Part shown: piece after piece, positions 2,866 to 53,896 of the stretch
Position numbering within the stretch: position 1 is the first letter of the stretch
Layout: each line of letters starts with the position of its first letter
IMG/VR virus record: IMGVR_UViG_3300042544_003275
DNA from: an uncultured virus (IMG/VR IMGVR_UViG_3300042544_003275)
Taxonomy: Duplodnaviria > Heunggongvirae > Uroviricota > Caudoviricetes
Strand: one strand, 5' to 3'
DNA length: 64,000 nt
Made by a program: the position numbers and the translations under genes
Notes under the pieces: model-generated
Seen by the model: only the letters and a program-made list of their open reading frames with translations
Database searches by the model: none
Told to the model about the DNA's origin: nothing

Positions 2866-5800
2866 TTAACTTATTATTACTACTCTTCCATTTATAATTG
2901 TAACAGATGATCTAACATCTATTGCATTTACACTTGTTTTTTTAACTTCTGGTACTATTAATTCACCAGTTGTCTCATCCCACATATTAAATAAAATTGC
3001 TTGTGTGTTTAACATGTGAGATATTGAATATGTAACACCACCAGTAAATGATTGTGTTGCTGTATATTTTCCTATTCCTGTTCCAGATGTACCACTTGTT
3101 CCGGTTCCAGATGTTCCATTAGTACCATTTAATCCTGAGGTTCCGGAAGTACCAGTTAGTCCAGAAGTACCAGATGTTCCTCTTGTTCCTGAAGTACCAC
3201 TTGTACCATTAACACCACTTGTACCACTTGTTCCATCTAATCCAGAAGTACCAGATGTTCCATCTATTCCTGAACTACCACTTGTGCCGGTTAATCCAGA
3301 GGTTCCAGAGCTACCGGTCAACCCACTAGTCCCGGAAGTTCCGGTCAACCCACTTGTTCCGGATGTTCCAGTTCTACCGGAAGTACCAGCAGTACCAGTA
3401 GATCCAGAGGTTCCAGAGGTTCCAGATGTTCCAGCTAATCCGGATGTTCCTGATGTTCCAGTTAATCCAGAAGTACCACTTGTACCAGTTAGACCGGAAG
3501 TACCAGAAGTACCTGTTAGACCTGATGTACCACTTGTACCAGTTAGTCCGGATGTTCCGGATGTTCCAGTCAGTCCACTAGTACCATTTGTACCAGTCAG
3601 TCCACTAGTACCATTTGTGCCAGTTAGACCACTAGTTCCTGATGTTCCGGTTAATCCACTAGTTCCGGATGTTCCATTAATACCCGAAGTTCCGGATGTT
3701 CCATTAATACCCGAACTTCCGGATGTTCCGGTTAATCCACTAGTTCCGGATGTTCCGGTTAATCCACTAGTTCCGGATGTTCCATTATTACCTTGAATCC
3801 CTTGTGGACCTTGAAGTTCACCCATGTCAACCCACCCCTCAGAGTTTGATGCTAAAGATGATGGATTGTATATCCAAAAGTGTGATGTATCTTGTAATAT
3901 ATAAGCATCTAAATTATTAGGAGGTACTACAGAATATGAGGTACCATGACTTTGTGTCATTGATGAATAGTTTAATTCAACACCTAGTGCTGTTAGTGAC
4001 TCTCCTGGATCTCCTTTAGCACCTGATGTTCCTGATGTTCCAGTTAATCCACTGGTTCCTGAACTACCCGATGTTCCATTTGTTCCATTAAAACCTGATG
4101 TGCCGGAAGTACCATTAATACCAGAAGTACCACTTGTCCCAGTTAATCCACTTGTACCACTTGTTCCAGTTAATCCACTAGTTCCTGATGTTCCTTCTAA
4201 ACCTGAAGTTCCTGATGTACCTTCTAAACCCGAAGTTCCGCTTGTTCCTTCTAAACCAGAAGTTCCGCTTGTTCCGGTTCCAGATGTACCTGATGTACCA
4301 GTTAATCCACTTGTACCTGATGTACCAACTGCTGAAGTACCTGAAGTTCCGGATGTACCAGTTGCTGATGTACCGTTTGTACCATTTAATCCTGAGGTTC
4401 CAGAGGTTCCAGTACCAGAGGTTCCAGCTGTTCCATTTAATCCTGATGTACCAGAGGTTCCAGTTAATCCTGAAGTGCCACTTGTGCCATTTAATCCTGA
4501 CGTACCAGAGGTTCCATTTAATCCTGATGTGCCAGCGGTTCCATTTAATCCTGACGTACCAGCGGTTCCATTTAATCCTGACGTACCAGCGGTTCCATTT
4601 AATCCTGACGTACCAGCGGTTCCATTTAATCCTGACGTACCAGCGGTTCCAGTTATTCCAGATGTGCCACTTGTACCGGTTAATCCTGAGGTACCAGCGG
4701 TTCCATTTGTGCCTGATATTCCACTTGTACCGGTTAATCCTGAGGTACCAGCGGTTCCATTTGTGCCTGATATTCCACTTGTTCCGTTTGTTCCATTAAC
4801 ACCTGGTAAACCTTGAGGTCCTTGTATCTCACCCATATCAACCCAACCTTCATAGTTAGAGACACTAGATGTTGGATTGTATATCCAAAAGTGTGATGTA
4901 TCTTGTAATATGTAAGCATCTAAATTATTAGGTGGTATAACTGAATATGAAGTACCATAACTTTGTGTCATTGAAGAGTAGTTTAGTTCGATACCAAGAG
5001 CTGTTATAGATTCTCCTGGATTTCCTTGAGCACCAGAAGTACCAGATGTTCCTGTTCCACTAGAACCGGAAGTACCGGAACTACCTGAAGTACCATATAT
5101 TGAACCTTGTACATCCCATGCTGCTCCATTCCAGATATAAAAATCTCCGGTGGTTTCGTCTAAATAGATATCACCCTGATTTACACCGGTCGTTATAGGT
5201 ACTCCTGTTCCAAGTGTCCATGTATTACCTGAATCACCACTTGATCCTGAGGTTCCATCTATTCCTGAACTACCACTTGTGCCTGTTAATCCAGAGGTTC
5301 CAGAGCTACCGGAGGTTCCAGAGCTACCACTTGTGCCTGTTAATCCAGAACTTCCAGATGTTCCATCTATTCCTGAAGTACCAGAGGTTCCAGTTAATCC
5401 AGAAGTGCCAGATGTTCCAGTTAATCCAGAAGTACCAGCGGTTCCACTTAATCCAGAGGTTCCAGCGGTTCCACTTAATCCAGAAGTACCAGATGTTCCA
5501 TCAAATCCTGAAGTACCAGATGTTCCATCTATCCCAGAACTTCCAGAGGTTCCGGTTAATCCTGAAGTACCACTTGTTCCATCTATTCCAGAACTTCCAG
5601 ATGTTCCCTCAATTCCACTAGTTCCTGATGTTCCCTCAATTCCACTAGTTCCTGATGTTCCCTCAATTCCACTAGTTCCTGATGTTCCCTCTACACCATT
5701 TACTACCCATGATATAGAGTATTCGGTACCATTTGTAATTAATCCGGTACCATGTAACTTAGTTCCTAAAATAATATCAGTATAATTAGATGACCAAGTA

Positions 5801-7761
5801 ACATCAATTGGATCGACAATATAAATACCACTAATTGAACTATTACCAACTTCTGATATTTTAAATAAAATATTAGATGAATAGTTTGTTATCTCATTTA
5901 ACCAATCTGAATATGAGTTACTATCACTTGATACTGAAGAGATTGAAAGTAATGAAATATTATCTAAATCAGAATCATCTACAAGAAAATATGTAGAACC
6001 TGGATCATTTGGGGATGAAGATGAATTATTAAATATCCATCTAGCTGAATTTGATGCATCATTTCCTGATACACCTGATGTTCCTGACGATCCATTTGTT
6101 CCTGATAAACCTTGTGGTCCTTGTATAGGTCCCATGTCAACCCATCCTTCATAGTTTGCAGCTCCAGATGATGTATCATATATCCATAAATGACTTGTAT
6201 CTTGTACAATATACACATCTAATAGATTTGGAGTTGGAATAGAATAAGATGTTCCTCTACTTTGTGTCATTGAAGAGTAATCGGCTTCAACTCCTAATGG
6301 TGATAATGTTTCACCTGGTATACCTTGTCCTCCTGATGTTCCACTTGTACCATTAACTCCTGATGTTCCACTTGTACCACTGATTCCAGAGGTTCCACTT
6401 GTACCATCTATTCCAGATGTTCCACTTGTACCATCAAATCCACTGGTTCCTGATGTTCCATCATATCCTGATGTTCCACTTGTTCCATTTGACACAGAAT
6501 CAACATATCCTTTAGTAACTAAAGAGTGAGTAGTAAAGTTACCAGTATAATCACCATAATAGATAAGACCCTTTTGATTCTCATCATCCATCACAATCAT
6601 TCTGTTGTTATCAGAACCATCTCCAGATACTTCATTATACGAATAGATATTAAAGTAATTTGACTGAGTAAATCCATTATCCAATGCAAATGATATTCCA
6701 GCAGAATTGGCTTGAATGTTGAATGTATTACTATTTGTTACACTTTGGTAATACATATTAACATAATCACCAGCTGATTGTATTTCTGTGTATCCATCGT
6801 TATTATATGATTGTATAGTTGAGTACGATGCTTGTATAAAAACTGATCCAGTTCCTATTATATTGAGATTAAATCCATTTCCATCAATTGTAGTGTCTTG
6901 ACTTAAAGTCCCGCCTAATATAACTTCATTACTTACTACTTGTAAACCATTACTAGCCGATGTTGTAGTATCAACCCAATAAACATTACCAGAACCATCT
7001 GTTTGTAATACTTGGTTTATAGAACCATCTGTATTTGGTAATGTATAAACATTATTAATATTAACATTATTTCCTAAATAAACCGTATTATTTTGAGATG
7101 CTGTTAGATATTCACCACCAATTATAACTGAACCTTCTACTCCAATATTTGTTAATGATGACTTTGAGTTTATATGAACGTAAGCTTTGTTTTGACTACC
7201 TGAATCATATGATGAACCTGCTTCTATTATTTTAACATCATCATATAATAAAGTTGAGTCTACAAGTGATATTGAATAATTAAGAGAATCTTGATTAACT
7301 AATGTATATTTTGCATTCTCACCAGAGAATAAATTAATAAATGGTAAATTTGATGCAGTACCAGGATTTATCTCAATAACAGAATATGATCCTGTTAAAG
7401 TATTTTCAGTGTAAAATCTTGAGTTTGCATTTGGTCTTAGTAATAAATTAGAGCTTATATATCCAGATGTATTTGCCAATGATGTAGCGGTTGAATTAAA
7501 TACCAAAGATCCTGACTCAGATGATATACCAGAACCATCAGTCATTTCTATTGAGTAAGTACCAGCATCATTACCAACAGTTAATACTTCAGATAACGAT
7601 GGTGTAGCACCGCCAGAACCAGCACCAATTTGAGTAATTACTCCGAATTCATCTTTTTGCTTTAAAACACCATCTATATCATAAGCCACCGTCCAAGCTC
7701 CTGTTGAAGGAGTTGCAGCGTCAACCAATGACATAGTATTACCAAAATATATAAAACTCAT
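2866..7761 (-). CDS. collagen-like (Gly-Thr-Ser repeat) fibre protein
   Basis: 1631 aa, long G-X-Y runs (GTSGTSG), three copies of a ~65-aa domain ending GWVDMGxxQGPQG. Confidence 0.75.
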
Positions 7762-10326: not shown

Positions 10327-10362
10327 TAAAAGAATTAAAAACAATTAAAAAATAAAAAGACA

Positions 10363-10437
10363 ATGACAACAATTTCTACATATTATTATGAGGTCGAGAG
10401 CAAAAGCTCCGTCAGACGAGTAGTGATTATGTCGTAA
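10363..10437 (+). CDS. attenuator leader peptide 1 (MTTISTYYYEVESKSSVRRVVIMS)
   Basis: 24-aa ORF with TAT-TAT-TAT-GAG-GTC-GAG ahead of terminator and Tyr/Glu tRNAs. Confidence 0.8.
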   Translation: MTTISTYYYEVESKSSVRRVVIMS

Positions 10438-10462
10438 TTGAAAAATATTATATAAACACTTC

Positions 10463-10494
10463 AACCCAGTCTGACTTATCAGACTGGGTTTTTT
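10463..10494 (+). terminator. attenuator terminator 1
   Basis: AACCCAGTCTGA-ctta-TCAGACTGGGTT + T tract; 5' arm complementary to GTCAGAC in leader. Confidence 0.85.
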
Positions 10495-10505
10495 GTTTTA
10501 AATTT

Positions 10506-10573
10506 GGGATGGGTTATGGTGACGGCCGGATCTGTAAAATCCTAGCAGGTGAGTTCGAGTCTCACACATCCCA
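10506..10573 (+). tRNA. atypical tRNA-Tyr(GTA), short D arm, no long variable arm
   Basis: Loop CTGTAAA; T arm GTGAG-TTCGAGT-CTCAC. Confidence 0.6.
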
Positions 10574-10579
10574 CAAAAT

Positions 10580-10651
10580 GTTCCGTTCGTCTAGCGGTAG
10601 GACATCTTCCTTTCAAGAAGAAGGTCACGGGTTCGAATCCCGTACGGAATA
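10580..10651 (+). tRNA. tRNA-Glu(TTC)
   Basis: Cloverleaf, loop CTTTCAA. Confidence 0.9.
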
Positions 10652-10656
10652 CAAAT

Positions 10657-10728
10657 GGTCCTGTCGACTAATGGTCAGGTCAACACCCTTTCAAGGTGCA
10701 GATGCGGGTTCGATCCCCGTCAGGACTA
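10657..10728 (+). tRNA. tRNA-Glu(TTC)
   Basis: Cloverleaf, loop CTTTCAA. Confidence 0.85.
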
Positions 10729-10748
10729 CAAAAAATAAAATGAAAAGA

Positions 10749-10780
10749 TTAGGTGGAAATGAAAAACTTCCTTATCTTTG
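10749..10780 (+). promoter_or_regulatory. internal Bacteroidota-type promoter in tRNA cluster 1
   Basis: TTAGGT...TATCTTTG. Confidence 0.55.
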
Positions 10781-10835
10781 TAAAACAAAAGAGGTAAATA
10801 TAAATCCAAGTAACCCCTTGGTTTTTTACTAACTT

Positions 10836-10907
10836 GGTCCCATCGTCTAACGGTTAGGACGTTAGGTTTTCATCCTAGAAATCGGAGTTCGATTCTCCGT
10901 GGGACTA
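10836..10907 (+). tRNA. tRNA-Glu(TTC)
   Basis: Cloverleaf, loop TTTTCAT. Confidence 0.9.
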
Positions 10908-11003
10908 CAAATATCGGAGTAATTAACCGATACTAACAAGAAGATGTATCATATATCGCAGTGAGATTTGGTACCAGTAATTTCTGATATGTCTACTTGA
11001 ATA

Positions 11004-11079
11004 ACTGCTTATGGTGTAAATTGGTTTGCACATCGGTCATTAGGCCGAAGGGCTATAGGTTCGAGTCCTATGGGTAGTT
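11004..11079 (+). tRNA. tRNA-like element, anticodon not assignable
   Basis: D, anticodon and T arms present but loop is 6 nt (TCGGT-CATTAG-GCCGA). Confidence 0.5.
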
Positions 11080-11084
11080 CATAT

Positions 11085-18517: not shown

Positions 18518-20116
18518 TTGGCTGAGATAAAAGTAAATAGAACTAAGAAAAAACAATTGGGTCAGTTCATGACTCCTATTGATAAATGCCAAGAAATACT
18601 ATCCGGATATACATTTACTATCAATGATAAAGTTTTAGAACCATCTTTTGGTTGTGGTAATTTTATTGTTACTCTTATAGATAAGTTCATTCATTTATAT
18701 GAAGGTACAATAGAAGAAAGAATAACTAAAATTCTGAATAATAATATCTATGGTGTAGAGTTCGACGAAGAAAAGTATCAAGAGTGTATTGAAAATATTC
18801 GATATGAATATGGATTTGTACCTGATGAACATAATCTTGTTTTAGGAGACTACTTTCTTTACAAACCATCTATTAACTTTGATTATATAATTGGTAATCC
18901 TCCTTTTGGTGGAACAATCGATCCTACTTATCAAGATGAATTAGATAAAAAGTATGGTATAAGAAATGGTGAGAAAATAAAAAAAGAAACATATTCTTTC
19001 TTTATGATTAAATCTGTTGAGTCACTTAAAGAAAATGGTAAGTTAATTTTTATTAGTTCTGATACATTCTTAACAATCAAAAGTATGAAAGGTTTAAGAA
19101 TGTTCTTATTTGAAAATGGATATAATCAGATTGAAACTATACAATACTTTTCTGAAGAGACTGATTATCCAATGGTTGTTTTAACACATCATAAATCAAA
19201 TAAACAAAATCACATACTTTTAGATGAAGTTGAGATTCCTTATAATAATATGATTCTCACAAGTAATTTCTCTTGGTATATTCAAAGTGAGTATGTTAAA
19301 TACTTTAAGGGTAATAAATTAGGTGATTATATTCTTGGATCTGGTGGAATCACACTTGGTAAAAACGAATTATTTTTAAGAGAGATTAGAGAAGATAATA
19401 CAATACTTGAAGAATATGATTTCACATTTTTTGATGATACTATTACTTTAGAGAAAGAAATATCAAAAGCCAGAAATAATAAACTATCTTTTAATAAGAT
19501 AAAAGAAATTCAAGAATTAGAAAGAAAAGGTGTTACTAAAAGAAATGTAAAAATAACTAAGTTAGTTGAACCTATTGTTATTCAGCTACCTAATGATGAT
19601 TATTGTTTTTATAACAAATCATCGAATGAATCTTTATTTAGTAAACCAAACACCGTTGTTTATTGGAAAAATGATGGAGATGCTGTTATTACATTTAAGA
19701 AGAATGGTAACTGGTATTTACATGGAGTAGGTGGTAAATCTTTTTTTAAGAGAGAAGGAATAACTTGGCAATTGATATCATCTTCAATTAAAGCTAGATA
19801 TTTACCATCTGGTTATATTTTAGATGCTGGGTCACCGATAGTAGTTTTAAGAGACAATATAGAAAAACAAGAACTGTTTTTTATTATTGGTTGGTTATTA
19901 ACATCTAAATGTAATGAGATACTAAAGAGTGTTATCAATCATACAAAGAATATACAAAGTAAAGATATTGAAAGACTTCCTTATCCTTTCTGGGTTAATG
20001 AAGATAATAAAGAAAAAGTAATAAATTTGGTTAAGAATAATATCAACCGTAAAAAATCCACTGATCAATCTTCTGATAATTTATTTTTTCAATTAGAGGA
20101 ATTCTTTGATATATAA
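18518..20116 (+). CDS. N6-adenine DNA methyltransferase (Eco57I/TaqI-like)
   Basis: GQFMTP, LEPSFGCGNF, IGNPPF; TTG start. Confidence 0.85.
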   Translation: MAEIKVNRTKKKQLGQFMTPIDKCQEILSGYTFTINDKVLEPSFGCGNFIVTLIDKFIHLYEGTIEERITKILNNNIYGVEFDEEKYQECIENIRYEYGFVPDEHNLVLGDYFLYKPSINFDYIIGNPPFGGTIDPTYQDELDKKYGIRNGEKIKKETYSFFMIKSVESLKENGKLIFISSDTFLTIKSMKGLRMFLFENGYNQIETIQYFSEETDYPMVVLTHHKSNKQNHILLDEVEIPYNNMILTSNFSWYIQSEYVKYFKGNKLGDYILGSGGITLGKNELFLREIREDNTILEEYDFTFFDDTITLEKEISKARNNKLSFNKIKEIQELERKGVTKRNVKITKLVEPIVIQLPNDDYCFYNKSSNESLFSKPNTVVYWKNDGDAVITFKKNGNWYLHGVGGKSFFKREGITWQLISSSIKARYLPSGYILDAGSPIVVLRDNIEKQELFFIIGWLLTSKCNEILKSVINHTKNIQSKDIERLPYPFWVNEDNKEKVINLVKNNINRKKSTDQSSDNLFFQLEEFFDI

Positions 20117-25589: not shown

Positions 25590-25700
25590 ATGAGAACAAT
25601 GAATTTAAATATGAACATTAATACACTGACAGTGGTGAATAATACGTTATGTATTAGACCATCTGAGGGTTTTGTCATATCTAAACGATTTGTTAGTTAA
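25590..25700 (+). CDS. attenuator leader peptide 3 (MRTMNLNMNINTLTVVNNTLCIRPSEGFVISKRFVS)
   Basis: First 23 residues use only M,R,T,N,L,I,V,C, the amino acids of the downstream tRNA array. Confidence 0.85.
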   Translation: MRTMNLNMNINTLTVVNNTLCIRPSEGFVISKRFVS

Positions 25701-25735
25701 CATGGAATAATAACAAATTAAATAAAGGATAATCG

Positions 25736-25767
25736 AAACCCTCAGTCTAAAAACTGAGGGTTTTTTT
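25736..25767 (+). terminator. attenuator terminator 3
   Basis: AAACCCTCAGT-ctaaaa-ACTGAGGGTTT + T tract; leader contains CTGAGGGTTTTG. Confidence 0.9.
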
Positions 25768-25782
25768 ATGTCTAAAAAATTT

Positions 25783-26444: not shown

Positions 26445-26452
26445 CTAAAAAT

Positions 26453-26535
26453 GGTCCCGTGGCCGAGTGGTGTAGAAATACGGGAGGTAGTGGATTGCAA
26501 ACTCACTCACGCTGGTTCGAATCCAGCCGGGACCT
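26453..26535 (+). tRNA. tRNA-Cys(GCA), enlarged D loop
   Basis: Loop TTGCAAA, U73. Confidence 0.75.
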
Positions 26536-27078: not shown

Positions 27079-27110
27079 CTGAAGTGAAACGAAAGTTCAC
27101 TACAAAATAT

Positions 27111-27180
27111 GCCGCGGCTTAGTGGAAAAGGACATTGGCTCATATCCGATGTTAAGTGAGTTCGAACCTCATACGCGGTA
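27111..27180 (+). tRNA. tRNA with CAT anticodon (Met or Ile2), degenerate D arm
   Basis: ATTGG-CTCATAT-CCGAT, T arm present. Confidence 0.55.
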
Positions 27181-28291: not shown

Positions 28292-29764
28292 ATGAAAAAT
28301 ATTGTAACAAGAATCGCACCTTCACCCACTGCTCCATTTTCTCATCTTGGAAATTTGAGAACATTATTATATAACTACTTCCTTGCTAAAAGACACGGTG
28401 GTAAATTCATTGTTCGTTTAGAAGATACGGATCGTGATCGTTATACACCATCTTTCTTAACATATTTTAAGGATATGTGTGACTGGCTTGGTATAGTACC
28501 AGATGCTTCTTATTGGAATCCAGATCCAACTATTGGTTCTTTTGTACAATCAGAAAGAGATTATTCTGATAAAGTTAATTACCTAATTGACGCTGGGTTG
28601 GCTTATTATGCTTTTGATACTAAAGATGATTTAGATGCTCTTAAATCAAAGGGTCTTAAATATGACGCAACTACAAGAATGAGTATGAACAACTCTTTAG
28701 TTATGTCTAAAGATGATTTTGACTCAACGATGAAAAATGGTACTCCATATGTTATTCGTTTTGCGGTAAATCCTGATGTTGATATCACTTTTGATGATGC
28801 TATTTTAGGTACAATTACTATTAGTACAAATACTCTTGATGATAAAGTTTTAATTAAGTCAAATGGTATTGGTTCTTATCATCTTTGTAATGTTTGTGAC
28901 GACCATGATATGGGTGTCTCTCATGTTCTTAGAGGTAACGAGTGGGTAAACTCAACACCTTTTCACATCTTAATGTATAAGGCTTTTGGTTGGGATGTTC
29001 CAACATTCTCTCACTTACCATTGATTATGAATCCAGATGGTAAAGGAAAGTTATCTAAAAGAACTGCTGCTAAATATGGTATTCCAATTGCACCAATTGG
29101 TTACTTTGATGATAATGGTGATTATAACAAAGGTTGGAAAGACCTTGGATATGACCCTAAGGCTTTTATGAACGCACTTGCTTTAATTGGATGGAATCCT
29201 GGTGGTGATGTTGAAATGATGTCTATGAAAGATATGATTGATTCTTTCTCTTTAGATAGAGTTCATAAATCAGGAGCTCGTTTTGATATGGATAAAGCAA
29301 AGTGGATTAACGCTCATCATTTGAGAACAACTCCTAATTCTTGTTTGAGACCATTTATCAATATTAAAGACGATAGATATTCTGATGATAAATTAGATAT
29401 GATTATCGATTTGGCGAAAGAAAGATCTGAATTCAAATCTGACCTGAACACTGTTGTTGATTTATTCTTTGATAACCCTGTTATTACAGATAGAAAGAAG
29501 TTAGATGATAACTATACTTCTGTTATGAGTGACTTTGGTAACAACATTGATAATATTGATTTCACATCAACAGACACGATTAAATCGTCTATCGTAGATA
29601 TCTGTGATAGATTAGGTGTTAAGATTGGTAAAGTGATGCCAGGATTGAGAATGGCACTTGTGGGTGGTATTTCTGGACCAGATTTAATGACCACAATGTT
29701 AATCTTGGATAAGAAAGAAACTAAGAAAAGAATATCACTATCGACAAGTTTACTACATATTTAA
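28292..29764 (+). CDS. gltX: glutamyl-tRNA synthetase
   Basis: TRIAPSPT, HLGN, RLEDTD, LRGNEW, KLSKR. Confidence 0.95.
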   Translation: MKNIVTRIAPSPTAPFSHLGNLRTLLYNYFLAKRHGGKFIVRLEDTDRDRYTPSFLTYFKDMCDWLGIVPDASYWNPDPTIGSFVQSERDYSDKVNYLIDAGLAYYAFDTKDDLDALKSKGLKYDATTRMSMNNSLVMSKDDFDSTMKNGTPYVIRFAVNPDVDITFDDAILGTITISTNTLDDKVLIKSNGIGSYHLCNVCDDHDMGVSHVLRGNEWVNSTPFHILMYKAFGWDVPTFSHLPLIMNPDGKGKLSKRTAAKYGIPIAPIGYFDDNGDYNKGWKDLGYDPKAFMNALALIGWNPGGDVEMMSMKDMIDSFSLDRVHKSGARFDMDKAKWINAHHLRTTPNSCLRPFINIKDDRYSDDKLDMIIDLAKERSEFKSDLNTVVDLFFDNPVITDRKKLDDNYTSVMSDFGNNIDNIDFTSTDTIKSSIVDICDRLGVKIGKVMPGLRMALVGGISGPDLMTTMLILDKKETKKRISLSTSLLHI

Positions 29765-37156: not shown

Positions 37157-37252
37157 ATGAAAACAATTAACGTAAATATCGCACAAGTTAACCCGCAACC
37201 TCAGGATCAGGATTCTAAGGAAGTGACTAACTATGTCTTTACAATAAGTTAA
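37157..37252 (+). CDS. attenuator leader peptide 4 (MKTINVNIAQVNPQPQDQDSKEVTNYVFTIS)
   Basis: PQPQDQD run ahead of terminator and Pro/Asp/Gln tRNAs. Confidence 0.85.
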   Translation: MKTINVNIAQVNPQPQDQDSKEVTNYVFTIS

Positions 37253-37275
37253 TAAAAACATTAAACGATTTGTAT

Positions 37276-37315
37276 AAACCCAGTTAGTCTTTGATTAACT
37301 GGGTTTTTTTTTTTT
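37276..37315 (+). terminator. attenuator terminator 4
   Basis: AAACCCAGTTAGTC-ttt-GATTAACTGGGTTT + T tract; leader GACTAACT complements AGTTAGTC. Confidence 0.9.
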
Positions 37316-37324
37316 AGTAAAAAA

Positions 37325-37398
37325 CGGGTAGTGACTAAGGTTTTAAGCACGGGGGCTCTGGAAGCTTCAGTTAGTCGGTTCGATTCCGACCTACCCGA
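37325..37398 (+). tRNA. tRNA-Pro(TGG), atypical
   Basis: C1:G72, A73; loop TCTGGAA (C33), weak D arm. Confidence 0.6.
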
Positions 37399-48039: not shown

Positions 48040-48534
48040 ATGATTAAGAAGTTCAATGAAATGTTCGATGATGAAGAATTAAAAAATAAATTTGAGATTC
48101 CTTACTTACAAGGTGAATTCACACCTGGTAATCCTAATTTAAAACCTTACTCTAAAAGAACTGATAAAGTAACTGAACAAACAGAATTAAAAAAGTTAAT
48201 TTTTAAGTTTCCTATATTAGATTCTTTTCATAAAGTCACTAGAAAAATTGGAGACATAAATGTTTATTCTTTTTATGCTACAAGTTTAGAATCAGTTGAA
48301 GGTGATGAATACTATACTCAATTATCAGTCGCTTATAAAGATGGTGAGTATCATATGAATAGTTTATTTAGACTATTAGAAGAATATGATAGTCCAGAAA
48401 ATTGGATGGTACATGATTTTATATTTGATAATGTAGAAGACGCATATGAAGTATCAAGAGAGTTCTTAAAAGCTTGTATTTCTGTAAATGTTATAACACC
48501 GGAGGATTTAGGTAATCCAACATTTAACAATTAA
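48040..48534 (+). CDS. hypothetical protein with MIKKFNE N-terminus
   Basis: AATATATA upstream. Confidence 0.65.
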   Translation: MIKKFNEMFDDEELKNKFEIPYLQGEFTPGNPNLKPYSKRTDKVTEQTELKKLIFKFPILDSFHKVTRKIGDINVYSFYATSLESVEGDEYYTQLSVAYKDGEYHMNSLFRLLEEYDSPENWMVHDFIFDNVEDAYEVSREFLKACISVNVITPEDLGNPTFNN

Positions 48535-48557
48535 TTTTCATTTTATTTATTAAAAAA

Positions 48558-48815
48558 TTTGGCAGATTGAAATAGTCTCCATATCTTTGTATTCACAATA
48601 AAAGATTAAAAATATACTTGGATTGAAAAATTCCAGTGGTTGGAAAACCTACTCGCAAAGTAAAGACTAATTGTTGGTATATTTTTTATAAAAGATTTGG
48701 TAGATTAAAATAAAATACTTATCTTTGTAAAACAAATCAGAAACGTCTGATATAAGTTAAACAAAAAATCTTTACAAAAGATTTGGTAGATTGAAAAAGT
48801 TTACTTATCTTTGTA
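48558..48815 (+). promoter_or_regulatory. three tandem Bacteroidota-type promoters
   Basis: TTTGG(C/T)AGATT...TATCTTTGTA at ~48558, ~48696 and ~48782. Confidence 0.7.
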
Positions 48816-48849
48816 AAACAAAATTGAAATAAAGAGTATAAAAATATAT

Positions 48850-48922
48850 CGCGGAGTAGAGAAGTTGGAATCTCGTCAGGCTCATAACCTGAAGGTCACT
48901 GGTTCGAGTCCAGTCTCCGCTA
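48850..48922 (+). tRNA. tRNA-Met(CAT), initiator-like
   Basis: C1:U72 mismatch, loop CTCATAA. Confidence 0.9.
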
Positions 48923-48944
48923 CTAAACAGTTCTCAACGGAGAA

Positions 48945-49860
48945 CAACGTTCTTTGAAGTATTAAAAATTTTACTGAAACTCGACTTCGGTCTTAGTTCT
49001 TCGGAACAGAGTGTGTAAGTAAAGGGCGGCTTATAGTCCTTAAATAAACCTCGAAAGGGGGATAAAGTGGATACAAATGCTAATTGTATCTGCGTCTTGA
49101 GAGTTCTTCGGAACAATTGAGGTCGAGTAAGCAAGTGGGACACCACAAGTTCTGAGTAGTCGAGGGTAACACTGTAGACCAAATGAGTTTGTGACCGGGC
49201 AATTGTAGATTGTTTGGTTGACCTCGGAAGAGGAATAGGAATAACCCATAGGAATTATGTAAGAAATAAAGACTCACCGGTTTTTACTATTGCGAGTTCC
49301 AACTTAAAAGGTGTCTTAAAGTTGAAAGACAATCAGTTGTACAGGTGGTGCTGTTAATTGACACTAATCTCCCTACCAAGGGAGTAGATAAACCGAAAGG
49401 TGAGTCGTGGTGAAGATATCTTGAAGAGTTGTGATGGAGGCATCACACGGAGTAGTCCAGTATTCTTGAGACCAAAAGTCATGAGAGCTGAGAGGTGACC
49501 ACTACTTCGACATAATCTACTAGCACTAAATTTCTAACTGTTAATTGGAAACATTTAAAAATAAGAAATCAAAAGTGTTACCTAGTTACTGATGAAAGGT
49601 ACCTACTTAGTCGTGAGTGTTCACGGCCACTGAAGCTCGAAAGGCCGATGTGATTTCATCGAAAAACTTATAGAGGGTCGAACCTCGAATCAGCTCGCAA
49701 GGTTGAATAAGCGGATTAAATGGAGAGTAAACAGTAACTCAAGGAGTGGTTAGTCTAACTAACCGGTACTGACAGAATACTACTCAAAAGGTAGTGGATA
49801 AGTTTGGGAAATCATAATCCAACTAAAGATCTGTCGTATAGGATGTAATCTCAGTCCTTT
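48945..49860 (+). ncRNA. large structured non-coding RNA (GOLLD-like candidate)
   Basis: ~900 nt, raised GC, no credible ORF, many UUCG/GNRA hairpins, flanked by tRNAs. Confidence 0.6.
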
Positions 49861-49867
49861 TTTATAT

Positions 49868-49956
49868 GGCCTGTTCGTCTAGGGGAATACTTTCATAGAA
49901 AGTAGGATGGATATCTCTTCAGATATCAGACATTGGTTCGAATCCAATACAGGCTA
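49868..49956 (+). tRNA. tRNA-Glu-like with D-loop hairpin insertion and 8-nt anticodon loop
   Basis: GGCCTGT/ACAGGCT acceptor, GATAT-CTCTTCAG-ATATC. Confidence 0.55.
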
Positions 49957-50042
49957 CAAGTTTTCGTAGTGGTTAACTTTCCCTTTAATTAGGGGGTCTA
50001 CTGAAATAAGTAAGTAGGGTGGTTACCAAACACCACACAAAT

Positions 50043-50149
50043 GGCCCGTTCGTCTACAGGACTCGCAAGAGAAACTGAAACCTCGGTAGAAGTTTAGGAT
50101 ATCCAACTTTTCGGTTGGAAGATAGAGTGTTCGAATCCTCTACGGGCTA
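50043..50149 (+). tRNA. tRNA-Glu-like with ~40-nt D loop and 8-nt anticodon loop
   Basis: GGCCCGT/ACGGGCT acceptor, TCCAA-CTTTTCGG-TTGGA. Confidence 0.5.
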
Positions 50150-50176
50150 CAAAAAATTGACCCAAACGATGAAGGA

Positions 50177-50211
50177 AACCCATCAAGTTGAAAAATTTGA
50201 TGGGTTTTTTT
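50177..50211 (+). terminator. intrinsic terminator ending the RNA unit
   Basis: AAACCCATCAA..TTGATGGGTTTTTT. Confidence 0.8.
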
Positions 50212-50218
50212 AATATAT

Positions 50219-50707
50219 GTGAAAATGAATATAGAAATCGAGAGAAAATTCTTACTCAAATCAATGCCAGATTTAAAACCTACAGAGGTTATTAAAATTG
50301 AACAATGGTATTTTAAAAATCATGAAGGAATTTGGGAAAGAGCTCGATATTGTAACTCTAATATTAAAGGTAAGTATTATATACATACCATCAAAACAAC
50401 AATCTCAAAAGGTGTAAATATGGAAGATGAACATCCTCTAACAAAAGAGGAGTTTAATCTATTCGTTGAAAATTGTAAAAAAGAAGGAGTAGAATCTAGA
50501 AGTATATCTAAAAAAAGATGTATTTATCCACAAGATAAATTAAAATGGGAAGTCGATAAATTCGACGGTCACCTAATTATCGCTGAAATTGAAATTCCAG
50601 AACAAGACTATGAAGTTATAATTCCTGAGTATATCAAGAAAAGAGTTATAATTGAAGTTACTGGGATAAAACAATTCAGTAATAAAAACCTTTCTAATAA
50701 AATCTAA
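50219..50707 (+). CDS. CYTH domain protein
   Basis: EIERKFLL, KKR, WEVD, AEIE, SN. Confidence 0.85.
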   Translation: MKMNIEIERKFLLKSMPDLKPTEVIKIEQWYFKNHEGIWERARYCNSNIKGKYYIHTIKTTISKGVNMEDEHPLTKEEFNLFVENCKKEGVESRSISKKRCIYPQDKLKWEVDKFDGHLIIAEIEIPEQDYEVIIPEYIKKRVIIEVTGIKQFSNKNLSNKI

Positions 50708-51769: not shown

Positions 51770-53896
51770 ATGATGAATAACAAGCAAAATTTAGAAGGTA
51801 ATGACTATCAAGTTCCTGATATCAAAGCGGCGTTGGAAGATGATGAAGATGATGATAGAGGATTTGGTTCTTCTAAAAAGTCTGAGTCTAAATCTAGAAC
51901 TCCGGTATTAGATACTTACAGTCGTGACTTAACAAAAATGGCAGAAGAAGGTCGTCTTGACGCTATTGTAGGTAGAGAAAAAGAAATCGAAAGAGTTTCT
52001 CAAATACTTTCAAGAAGAAAGAAAAACAATCCAATTCTTATTGGTGAGCCAGGAGTTGGTAAATCTTCAATCGCTGAAGGATTAGCACTTAGAATCATCC
52101 AAAGAAAAGTAAGTAGATTACTTTTTAATAAAAGAGTTGTTATGTTAGACTTGGCTTCAATGGTTGCTGGTACTAAATACCGTGGTCAGTTTGAAGAAAG
52201 AATCAAAGCTCTTATGGCTGAAATGGAAAAAGAACCAGATGTGATTCTTTTCATTGATGAAATCCACACTATGATTGGTGCAGGTGGAGCTTCAGGTTCT
52301 ATGGACGCTTCTAATATGTTCAAACCGGCTTTAGCTCGTGGTGAAATCCAAATCATTGGTGCTACTACTTTAGATGAATATAGAAAACACATTGAAAAAG
52401 ATGGAGCTTTAGAAAGACGTTTTCAAAAAGTAGTTGTTGAACCAGCTACTCCAGAAGAAACCGTACAAATCTTAAATAACATTAAAGATAAGTACGAACA
52501 TCACCACAATGTTGAATACACACCAGATGCTATTAAAGCTTGTGTTGAGTTAACTACTCGTTATTTAACTGATAGACATTTACCAGATAAGGCTATCGAT
52601 GCTTTAGATGAAGTTGGTGCAAGAGTTCATATCTCTAACATTAAAGTTCCTAAAGAAGTAACTGATATTGAAAAGAAAATTGTTGATATCAAAGAAAAGA
52701 AAAATGGAGTTATTCGTTCTCAGAAATATGAAGAAGCTGCTAAACTAAGAGACGTTGAAAGACAATTAAATTCATCTTTAGAAGTTGCTAGAAAACAATG
52801 GGAAGAAGAATCATCTAACAATAAACAAATTGTAGATGAAGAAAGTGTTGCTGAAGTTGTTTCAATGATGTGTGGTATTCCATTACAAAAAGTAAATCAA
52901 AATGAAAACGAAAAGTTAGTTAAAATGCAAGAAAGTATTTCTGATAAAGTAGTTGGACAAGAAGATGCTGTTAGAAAAATCGTAAAAGCTATCCAAAGAG
53001 GTCGTGTTGGTTTGAAAGATCCAAACAAACCAATTGGTTCATTTATGTTCTTAGGACCTACAGGTGTTGGTAAAACACAATTGGCTAAGATTCTTGCTAA
53101 GTATTTATTTGATTCAGAAGATTCTTTAATTAGAATTGATATGTCTGAGTATATGGAGAAATTTGCAGTATCTAGATTAGTTGGAGCACCTCCAGGATAT
53201 GTTGGTCACGATGAAGGTGGACAGTTAACTGAGAAAGTAAGACGTAAGCCTTATTCAGTTATTCTTCTTGATGAGATTGAAAAAGCACACCCAGAAGTAT
53301 TTAACTTGTTACTTCAAGTTTTAGATGATGGTCAGTTAACAGATTCACTTGGTAGAAGAGTAAACTTTAAGAATACTATTATCATTATGACTTCTAATAC
53401 AGGTTCTCGTCAATTAAAAGAATTTGGAACAGGAGTTGGATTCTCTACTAAAAGTAGATCTGAAAACAAAATGGATGAAACAAATTCAGTTATCGATAAA
53501 GAATTAAAAAAGAAATTTGCACCTGAGTTCTTGAATCGTGTTGATGATGTAATTATGTTTAACTCTTTAGATAAAGAAGACATTAACAAAATTATCAAAA
53601 TTGAACTTGATGGTTTGATTAACCGTGTTGAGAAAATGGAATTCAATCTTGAAATTACGGAAGGAGCTGTTGAGTACATTGCTACTGAAGGATTTGACCA
53701 AGAGTATGGAGCTAGACCTCTTAAAAGAGCGATTCAAAAATATGTTGAGGATGTACTTACTGAGGAAATCATTCAACACAATCCTGAGAAAGGATCTAAA
53801 ATGATTTTAGATTATAATAAAGAGGATGATAAAATGGTTGTCAATTTTGAGAAAAAGAAAAAAGTCACTCGAAAAAAGAAGAGTGATGAAGAATAA
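51770..53896 (+). CDS. clpC: ClpC-type AAA+ ATPase lacking the N-terminal Clp repeat domain
   Basis: Two Walker A ([16 protein letters not shown]), UVR-like middle domain, GVGF ClpP-loop. Confidence 0.85.

Follow-up and report, generated by a model that had tools for sequence, protein, structure and literature searches.

What is the RNA encoded by the gene-free tract at positions 48,971–49,857, and how does the phage make it? The tract lies in a window of 64,000 nucleotides, the whole stretch of DNA analyzed here, from an uncultured Caudoviricetes virus (IMG/VR IMGVR_UViG_3300042544_003275). A preliminary description made from the sequence had called it an ORF-free, GC-richer tract with many hairpins, either GOLLD-like or a new giant RNA, expressed like an rRNA operon. 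The general features hold. The G+C content is 0.38–0.45, compared with 0.20–0.33 in 200-base windows of the neighboring 1.3 kb, and the sole plus-strand ORF of at least 40 residues is a 47-residue TTG frame. The 891-nt strand folds with a z score of −3.2, and none of 20 shuffles is equally low. All of the hairpins named earlier were found (48,983–48,992, 48,996–49,007, 49,049–49,060, 49,103–49,114, 49,392–49,401 and 49,431–49,446).

An Rfam scan, the check proposed in the preliminary description, identified the RNA. The GOLLD family (RF02032) covers 49,448–49,857 on the plus strand with a score of 278.7 bits (cut-off 150) and a match to model positions 1–416 of 416. The model spans only the 3' domain of GOLLD. 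No Rfam match was found for the 5' 500 nt of the RNA (48,500–50,250, E values up to 10), an absence that would favor a giant RNA of a new class, with no relation to GOLLD. We therefore turned to the 833-nt env-38 GOLLD sequence (Supplementary Table 4 of Kretsch et al., 2025, PMC12286853; this paper and the others cited here by PMC number were available in part). By eye, and with no computed alignment or identity, positions 49,022–49,857 (836 nt) are collinear with env-38, motif for motif, and therefore the 5' 500 nt read as an ordinary env-38-type 5' domain. Because the Rfam model describes the 3' domain only and the 5' part follows env-38, a new class is exceedingly improbable. The tract is almost certainly an ordinary full-length GOLLD of the env-38 type; the GOLLD-like claim stands and the family is already known. 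We divide the plus-strand RNA into a variable 5' hairpin domain (48,971–49,021), which lies 5' of where the published env-38 construct begins and is covered in part by RNA contigs from 48,982; the 5' domain beyond the Rfam model (49,022–49,447), supported by covariation; and the 3' domain (49,448–49,857).

Other candidates found no match. ROOL, tmRNA, RNase P RNA and group I and II introns gave none at the gathering score in the whole window, and none to an E value of 10 within 48,500–50,250, where the only good Rfam matches besides GOLLD are tRNAs; ARAGORN also found no tmRNA in the window. Inside the 3' domain lies an A/U-rich linker (about 49,510–49,583, 24% G+C; 58–75 nt among relatives), in which neither ARAGORN nor Rfam detected an embedded tRNA. 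GOLLD was not found in the 151 Bacteroidota-phylum and 151 Bacilli-class genomes searched, and a plasmid search returned a single weak chance match.

Pattern scans of viral and metagenome contigs yielded 36 distinct loci of the window's clade, 29 of them full-length. Forty loci from the first pattern scan were unmatched by the profile and by any Rfam family, and were dropped as chance matches. For covariation analysis, which the preliminary description had also proposed, we aligned 22 relatives less than 95% identical to one another and 60–95% identical to the window. In the 5' domain, 71 of the 114 predicted pairs change on both sides. Paired letters fill 97.4% of the cells, a value reached by none of 500 shuffles and compared with 39–44% in slid controls; the structure was drawn from the same alignment and the relatives are not independent. 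The 5' half thus covaries. One pairing proposed by RNAalifold, alignment columns 8–13 with 112–117, shows no compensatory change and was rejected.

The env-38 GOLLD forms a 14-mer RNA-only cage with an empty interior, as seen by cryo-EM (Kretsch et al., 2025). We mapped its ten inter-chain bridges by eye from the available parts of Supplementary Tables 2 and 4 onto the 22-row alignment. Nine of them, B2–B10, can be located in the window RNA; for B1 only the GAAA loop side is found. The B5 loops, GUGGUG and CUACCA, are invariant in all 22 relatives, and the loops of B2, B3, B6 and B10 are conserved. The kissing pair B7 is GA/UC in env-38 and UC/GA in 21 of 22 relatives, the remaining one (L111) having GC/GC. 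The self-pairing loop B8 reads CG in 22 of 22 relatives, compared with GC in env-38; B9 is GC in 21 and AU in one (L184). B4, the L8–L12 kissing interaction, is shortened in the window RNA and has 2–3 pairs in most relatives, compared with five in env-38; in L111 it is not shorter. Because the bridge loops are kept in the window RNA and its relatives, a cage of the env-38 kind is likely. The letter swaps in the kissing loops provide independent comparative support that the cage contacts observed in vitro are under selection.

The phage records closest to the window have very large genomes. Among 50,697 phage records, the best nucleotide matches, 78% identical, are LR745206 (634,780 bp) and LR756502 (642,428 bp), and the glutamyl-tRNA synthetase of the window (28,292–29,764) is 74–75% identical to those of these two records, which provide the genome-wide context. 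Genomes of 634 and 642 kb are among the largest described by Al-Shayeb et al. (2020; PMC7162821), a match in size by which the two records are linked to that study. Its available text gives, for genomes above 634 kb, a predicted Bacteroidetes host and predicted Mahaphage membership. The synthetase is accompanied in the window by three ordinary tRNA-Glu genes (10,580–10,908) as well as the odd Glu-like genes described below. Pfam matches elsewhere in the window include a 1631-residue collagen-repeat protein (2,866–7,761, minus strand), a ClpB/ClpC-type ATPase (51,770–53,896, plus strand) and a DNA methylase (18,518–20,116, plus strand).

Upstream of the RNA, the three tandem host-type promoters and the tRNA-Met of the preliminary description are both present. 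Near-identical plus-strand promoter-like repeats of the form TTTG-N20-TATCTTTG were located by pattern scan at 48,558–48,589, 48,696–48,727 and 48,782–48,813. The pattern TTTG-N17-23-TANNTTTG, which we take to be the Bacteroidota −33/−7 promoter consensus, occurs 16 times in the window compared with 5.4 ± 2.2 in shuffled sequences (0 of 100 as high), and a sigma-70 promoter scan of the window gave chance-level results (15 versus 17.9). A plus-strand tRNA-Met(CAT) gene at 48,850–48,923, called by both ARAGORN and Rfam, places this GOLLD, like others, beside tRNA genes. It is followed by a small predicted hairpin (48,930–48,945, plus strand), flagged by the terminator scan and boxB-like in position; similar hairpins are predicted in many, not all, relatives. 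Directly after it, at 48,949–48,958 on the plus strand, is a boxA-like element, GTTCTTTGAA, at the site (about 48,948) where one had been reported. Elsewhere in the window, frames resembling attenuators (a leader-peptide-like frame, then a hairpin and T run) were noticed by eye at about 10,360–10,505, 25,590–25,770 and 37,160–37,320; such leaders precede three tRNA clusters, and the GOLLD operon has none.

Within the window the boxA 9-mer occurs about as often as chance predicts (2 copies, with 1.0 expected), so its meaning rests on relatives. We counted GTTCTTTRA when it fell within 125 nt before the anchor of the RNA. In the window's clade, 34 of 36 loci have it ahead of GOLLD, compared with 12 of 1692 control windows; the loci are related, and such counts overstate independent events. 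The two loci that lack an exact match are L103, from the 642-kb record, and L161. In a second, distant clade of GOLLD-bearing phages the motif occurs in 16 of 17 loci (11 types at less than 95% identity) and in 1 of 902 control windows; the 17 are those with enough flanking sequence, four short loci being excluded. There the motif directly follows the last promoter, and ARAGORN found no tRNA within the available flanks. The second-clade GOLLD has no match among annotated phages, and its host group is assigned tentatively, from the look of the promoters alone. Since 2 of 36 and 1 of 17 loci lack the exact motif, it is, judged by these sequences, dispensable in some loci. The distance from motif to anchor varies from 50 to 112 nt with unrelated spacers, and what lies upstream differs between loci: tRNA-Met, a tRNA-like gene or a promoter. 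L102 carries the motif twice, after a promoter and after tRNA-Met. Three loci (L176, L155 and L122) share a structured insert of about 55 nt between boxA and GOLLD that other relatives lack. A further pairing suggested by RNAalifold, between boxA and 49,741–49,745, was rejected for lack of compensatory change.

The motif also stands before stable-RNA genes of Bacteroidota. An extended form, GTTCTTTRAMATATTG, has at least 121 matches in bacterial genomes. Among the 121 matches listed, 24 come after tRNA-Ile and/or tRNA-Ala and 3 stand ahead of a 16S start. Another 7 are located within or upstream of other tRNA genes, and 87 show no sign of rRNA or tRNA within the available flank. Where a title is given, the rRNA-type matches among those listed are all from Bacteroidota (18 of 18), and Rfam placed 23S rRNA downstream in 14, and 16S rRNA in 2, of 18 chosen bacterial loci. 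The extension ATATTG is common to GOLLD leaders and Bacteroidota rRNA spacers. The motif thus appears to be the rRNA boxA sequence of the host group, heading an untranslated RNA; its putative boxA role in Bacteroidota is read from position only. The motif also lies inside tRNA operons (for example Thr-Tyr-Gly-Thr) of Bacteroidota and Ignavibacterium (L209, L220, L236, L253, L225 and L258), a hint that host tRNA operons undergo antitermination.

E. coli can assemble its rRNA antitermination complex on boxA alone, with no need for the boxB that lies ahead of it, and this complex acts as a chaperone of folding; the boxA of Bacillus binds NusB (PMC13753749, PMC8632103, in the parts available). By analogy, we consider the phage motif probably a Nus-loading site, with good confidence. 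The claim of expression like an rRNA operon is supported, as the order of tRNA, hairpin, boxA and large RNA copies that of a 16S–23S spacer and the motif is kept in two phage clades. This arrangement suggests that the phage makes GOLLD the way the cell makes rRNA.

The 3' side departs in one respect from the preliminary description, which had the tract ending in a hairpin plus T run. This hairpin exists (49,841–49,863) and is weak (−3.7 kcal/mol, z −1.1) and unlisted by the terminator scan. It is the last stem of GOLLD itself, P27, and probably not the operon terminator; in env-38 the P27 loop makes tertiary contacts (PMC12286853). A strong plus-strand hairpin with a T run at 50,169–50,214 (z −6.6, also unlisted by the terminator scan) is the likely end of the transcription unit. 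The tRNA-like genes said to follow GOLLD are present, two of them, on the plus strand. At 49,868–49,957 is a tRNA-Glu-like gene with a D-loop hairpin insert and an 8-base anticodon loop, CUCUUCAG, identified by ARAGORN and alignment; the ARAGORN assignment, tRNA-Ser(AGA), is a misreading, as judged by alignment. The second, at 50,043–50,150, found by eye and alignment, has a long D-loop insert and the 8-base loop CUUUUCGG. By eye, the acceptor stem, D-stem and T arm of both resemble the tRNA-Glu genes of the window. Neither is a canonical tRNA-Glu, both having 8-base instead of 7-base loops and D-loop hairpin inserts. In the literature searched, part of which was available, an 8-base anticodon loop was found for yeast mitochondrial tRNA-Thr only (PMC7609411). 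Further tRNA-like genes with odd D arms or loops, uncalled by ARAGORN, lie at about 10,505–10,575, 11,000–11,080, 26,450–26,535, 27,110–27,180 and 37,325–37,398.

Across the 29 full-length loci there are 38 tRNA-Glu-like genes, of which 30 have an 8-base loop (CU-N-UUC-R-G in 29) on stems that change in compensating ways, and 8 have the 7-base CUUUUCA; their D-loop segments span 6–49 nt. A tRNA-like element lies within 13 nt of the GOLLD 3' end in 22 of 29 loci, whole in 13 and lacking the anticodon arm in 9; the armless element is 43 nt long, an acceptor stem with two short hairpins (L033:2119–2162 and eight other loci). The remaining 7 loci have no such element after GOLLD. This pattern fits end-trimming signals better than decoding, and that tRNA-like modules punctuate the GOLLD transcript is, on the sequences, an evenly balanced proposition. 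Similar 8-base-loop genes also occur with no GOLLD nearby, in 11 of 54 scanned loci (L326, L335, L338, L339, L361, L375 and others), and so may have a job of their own. A pairing of their UUUC loops with GAAA stretches of GOLLD was considered and is supported by no test.

Between the two tRNA-Glu-like genes is another RNA motif of about 80 nt (49,958–50,040, plus strand), recognized by covariation and with no Rfam match to an E value of 10. Besides an invariant 5' segment it has three hairpins that covary and a pseudoknot of 3 pairs, for which 4 of 18 rows show one compensatory change. The motif can occur in 2–3 tandem copies (among L314, L325, L307, L313, L321, L324 and the window set). In 19 scanned loci it lies within 1.5 kb of GOLLD in 9 and without GOLLD in that range in 6, and 4 are chance matches. 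Because those 6 carry the motif without GOLLD, we rejected it as part of GOLLD and treat it as separate.

The RNA is represented in environmental RNA libraries. Twenty-four runs from 20 studies are listed for 48,900–49,900, 22 of them on record as RNA, and they originate from freshwater, river and estuary samples. Contigs of four runs, from four studies, cover 48,982–49,840; they tell neither level, strand nor ends and, since RNA libraries may contain DNA, they mean presence in RNA libraries only, which falls short of the strong transcription claimed in the preliminary description. Pieces free of differences begin at 48,982 in two runs (X1 and X7), and contigs reach 49,840 in X1 and 49,836 in X4. 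The start at 48,982 hints at about 40 nt of GOLLD RNA upstream of where the published construct begins. No contig covers the protein genes on either side, or the tRNA-like genes downstream, of this strain, which is evidence of neither absence nor relative level. Joints within contigs were not taken as splicing, as their sides are short and the samples mixed.

Taken together, we propose, as a probable account, that the GOLLD gene of this freshwater Bacteroidota megaphage lies in a small stable-RNA operon that copies the host rRNA operon. Host RNA polymerase would start at the tandem promoters and read through tRNA-Met. The boxA would then load NusB–NusE and the remaining rRNA antitermination complex, which would protect the untranslated RNA, about 1.3 kb, against Rho and aid its co-transcriptional folding. 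The flanking tRNA and tRNA-like modules would serve as sites for host RNase P and trimming nucleases, releasing GOLLD, and the released RNA would assemble into an RNA-only cage of about 12–14 chains, like env-38. What the cage does is more speculative: with odds that we place well short of even, it may be a stable container in which phage tRNA-type RNAs are protected, or a sink for host defenses that attack RNA.

Parts of this account can be read otherwise. GTTCTTTRA might be a processing signal, the tail of a weak terminator or attenuator formed with the small hairpin before it, or a piece of the promoter's initial transcribed region, and not a site of Nus loading. Its position directly after the last promoter in the second clade would suit this, as would the terminator-scan flag on the 48,930–48,945 hairpin with its tail AACGTTCTTT and the RNAalifold pairing of the motif with the GOLLD 3' domain, which has no covariation behind it. 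However, relatives without a predicted hairpin (for example L019, L106, L156, L174 and L122) retain the motif, it follows promoters and tRNAs alike, as boxA does in rRNA leaders and spacers, twice over in L102, and it shares the ATATTG extension with Bacteroidota rRNA spacers. We consider a role other than Nus loading distinctly unlikely. The tRNA-Glu-like genes, likewise, might take part in decoding, for example by reading GAA-N with a +1 frameshift, or serve as decoys, instead of being processing signals for GOLLD. Their conserved 8-base loops on compensating stems, their occurrence away from GOLLD and the phage's own glutamyl-tRNA synthetase speak for such a function; the loss of the anticodon arm from the element after GOLLD in 9 of 29 loci, the eight CUUUUCA copies, which place C at position 37, and the variable D-loop segments speak against it. 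On balance we find decoding or decoy function doubtful.

GOLLD might also have host ribosomes as its target, which it would bind, store or redirect, with the rRNA-style leader coupling its assembly to ribosomal proteins. Ribosomes bind GOLLD in pull-downs cited by Kretsch et al. (PMC12286853), huge phages of this kind are rich in translation genes (PMC7162821), and the window has 33 ARAGORN tRNA calls in addition to the synthetase. The solved env-38 cage is nevertheless empty (PMC12286853), and we regard action on ribosomes as unlikely. Returning to the stable-RNA operon, its wider form, in which Bacteroidota-type phages of at least two clades hijack the rRNA pathway through a host-matched boxA and Nus factors and use non-decoding tRNA-Glu derivatives, with 8-base loops or without an anticodon arm, to punctuate and trim the GOLLD transcript, falls in our estimate just below an even chance. 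If it is true, GOLLD would be a 'third rRNA' of the phage, and one boxA mutation or the loss of NusB could switch off its production, giving a handle on GOLLD function.

The fresh point in these results is the boxA-like rRNA signal ahead of GOLLD, the RNA family itself being known. To that family, with its solved structure, the window adds a megaphage member found in freshwater RNA libraries. A conserved boxA would offer a specific explanation for how a long untranslated phage RNA escapes Rho and folds. Antitermination of the rRNA type is reported for rRNA, suhB and CRISPR arrays (in the available text of PMC13753749 and PMC8632103), and a boxA before GOLLD would extend it to a phage RNA. We found no boxA–GOLLD link in the literature searched, nor a mention of boxA in the available portions of PMC5737381, PMC6582537, PMC5643018 and the searched supplements of Kretsch et al. 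(PMC12286853); coverage of the GOLLD papers is partial, so the novelty is not secure.

Comparison with known systems, from the parts of each source available, places the window RNA closest in form to env-38. Both lie downstream of tRNA-Met, both have an A/U-rich linker and bridge loops, and by eye the motif order is the same from the first to the last stem (836 and 833 nt). Unlike env-38, the window RNA comes from a Bacteroidota-type megaphage, has extra tip hairpins, swapped letters in B7 and B8 and a shorter B4, and is followed by odd tRNA-Glu-like genes. Ahead of the stretch that corresponds to the published construct it also has a boxA-like leader and a variable domain of hairpins, 50 nt long. 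The GOLLD of Streptococcus agalactiae, a 700-nt RNA that forms a 12-mer (review, PMC12990946), shares the conserved 3' domain and the cage-forming loops; it lacks P9, P11a–c and P21b, whereas in the window RNA the two P21 hairpins are present and a hairpin capped by GAAA occupies the P11a position. ROOL is likewise a large cage-forming phage RNA near tRNAs (PMC5737381, PMC12286853), but the window RNA is unrelated to it in sequence and fold. The leader, finally, resembles a bacterial rRNA leader or 16S–23S spacer (PMC8632103, PMC13753749) in its succession of tandem promoters, tRNA, hairpin, boxA and large structured RNA. It differs from the rRNA operon in that it is encoded by a phage and drives GOLLD instead of rRNA, a predicted function.
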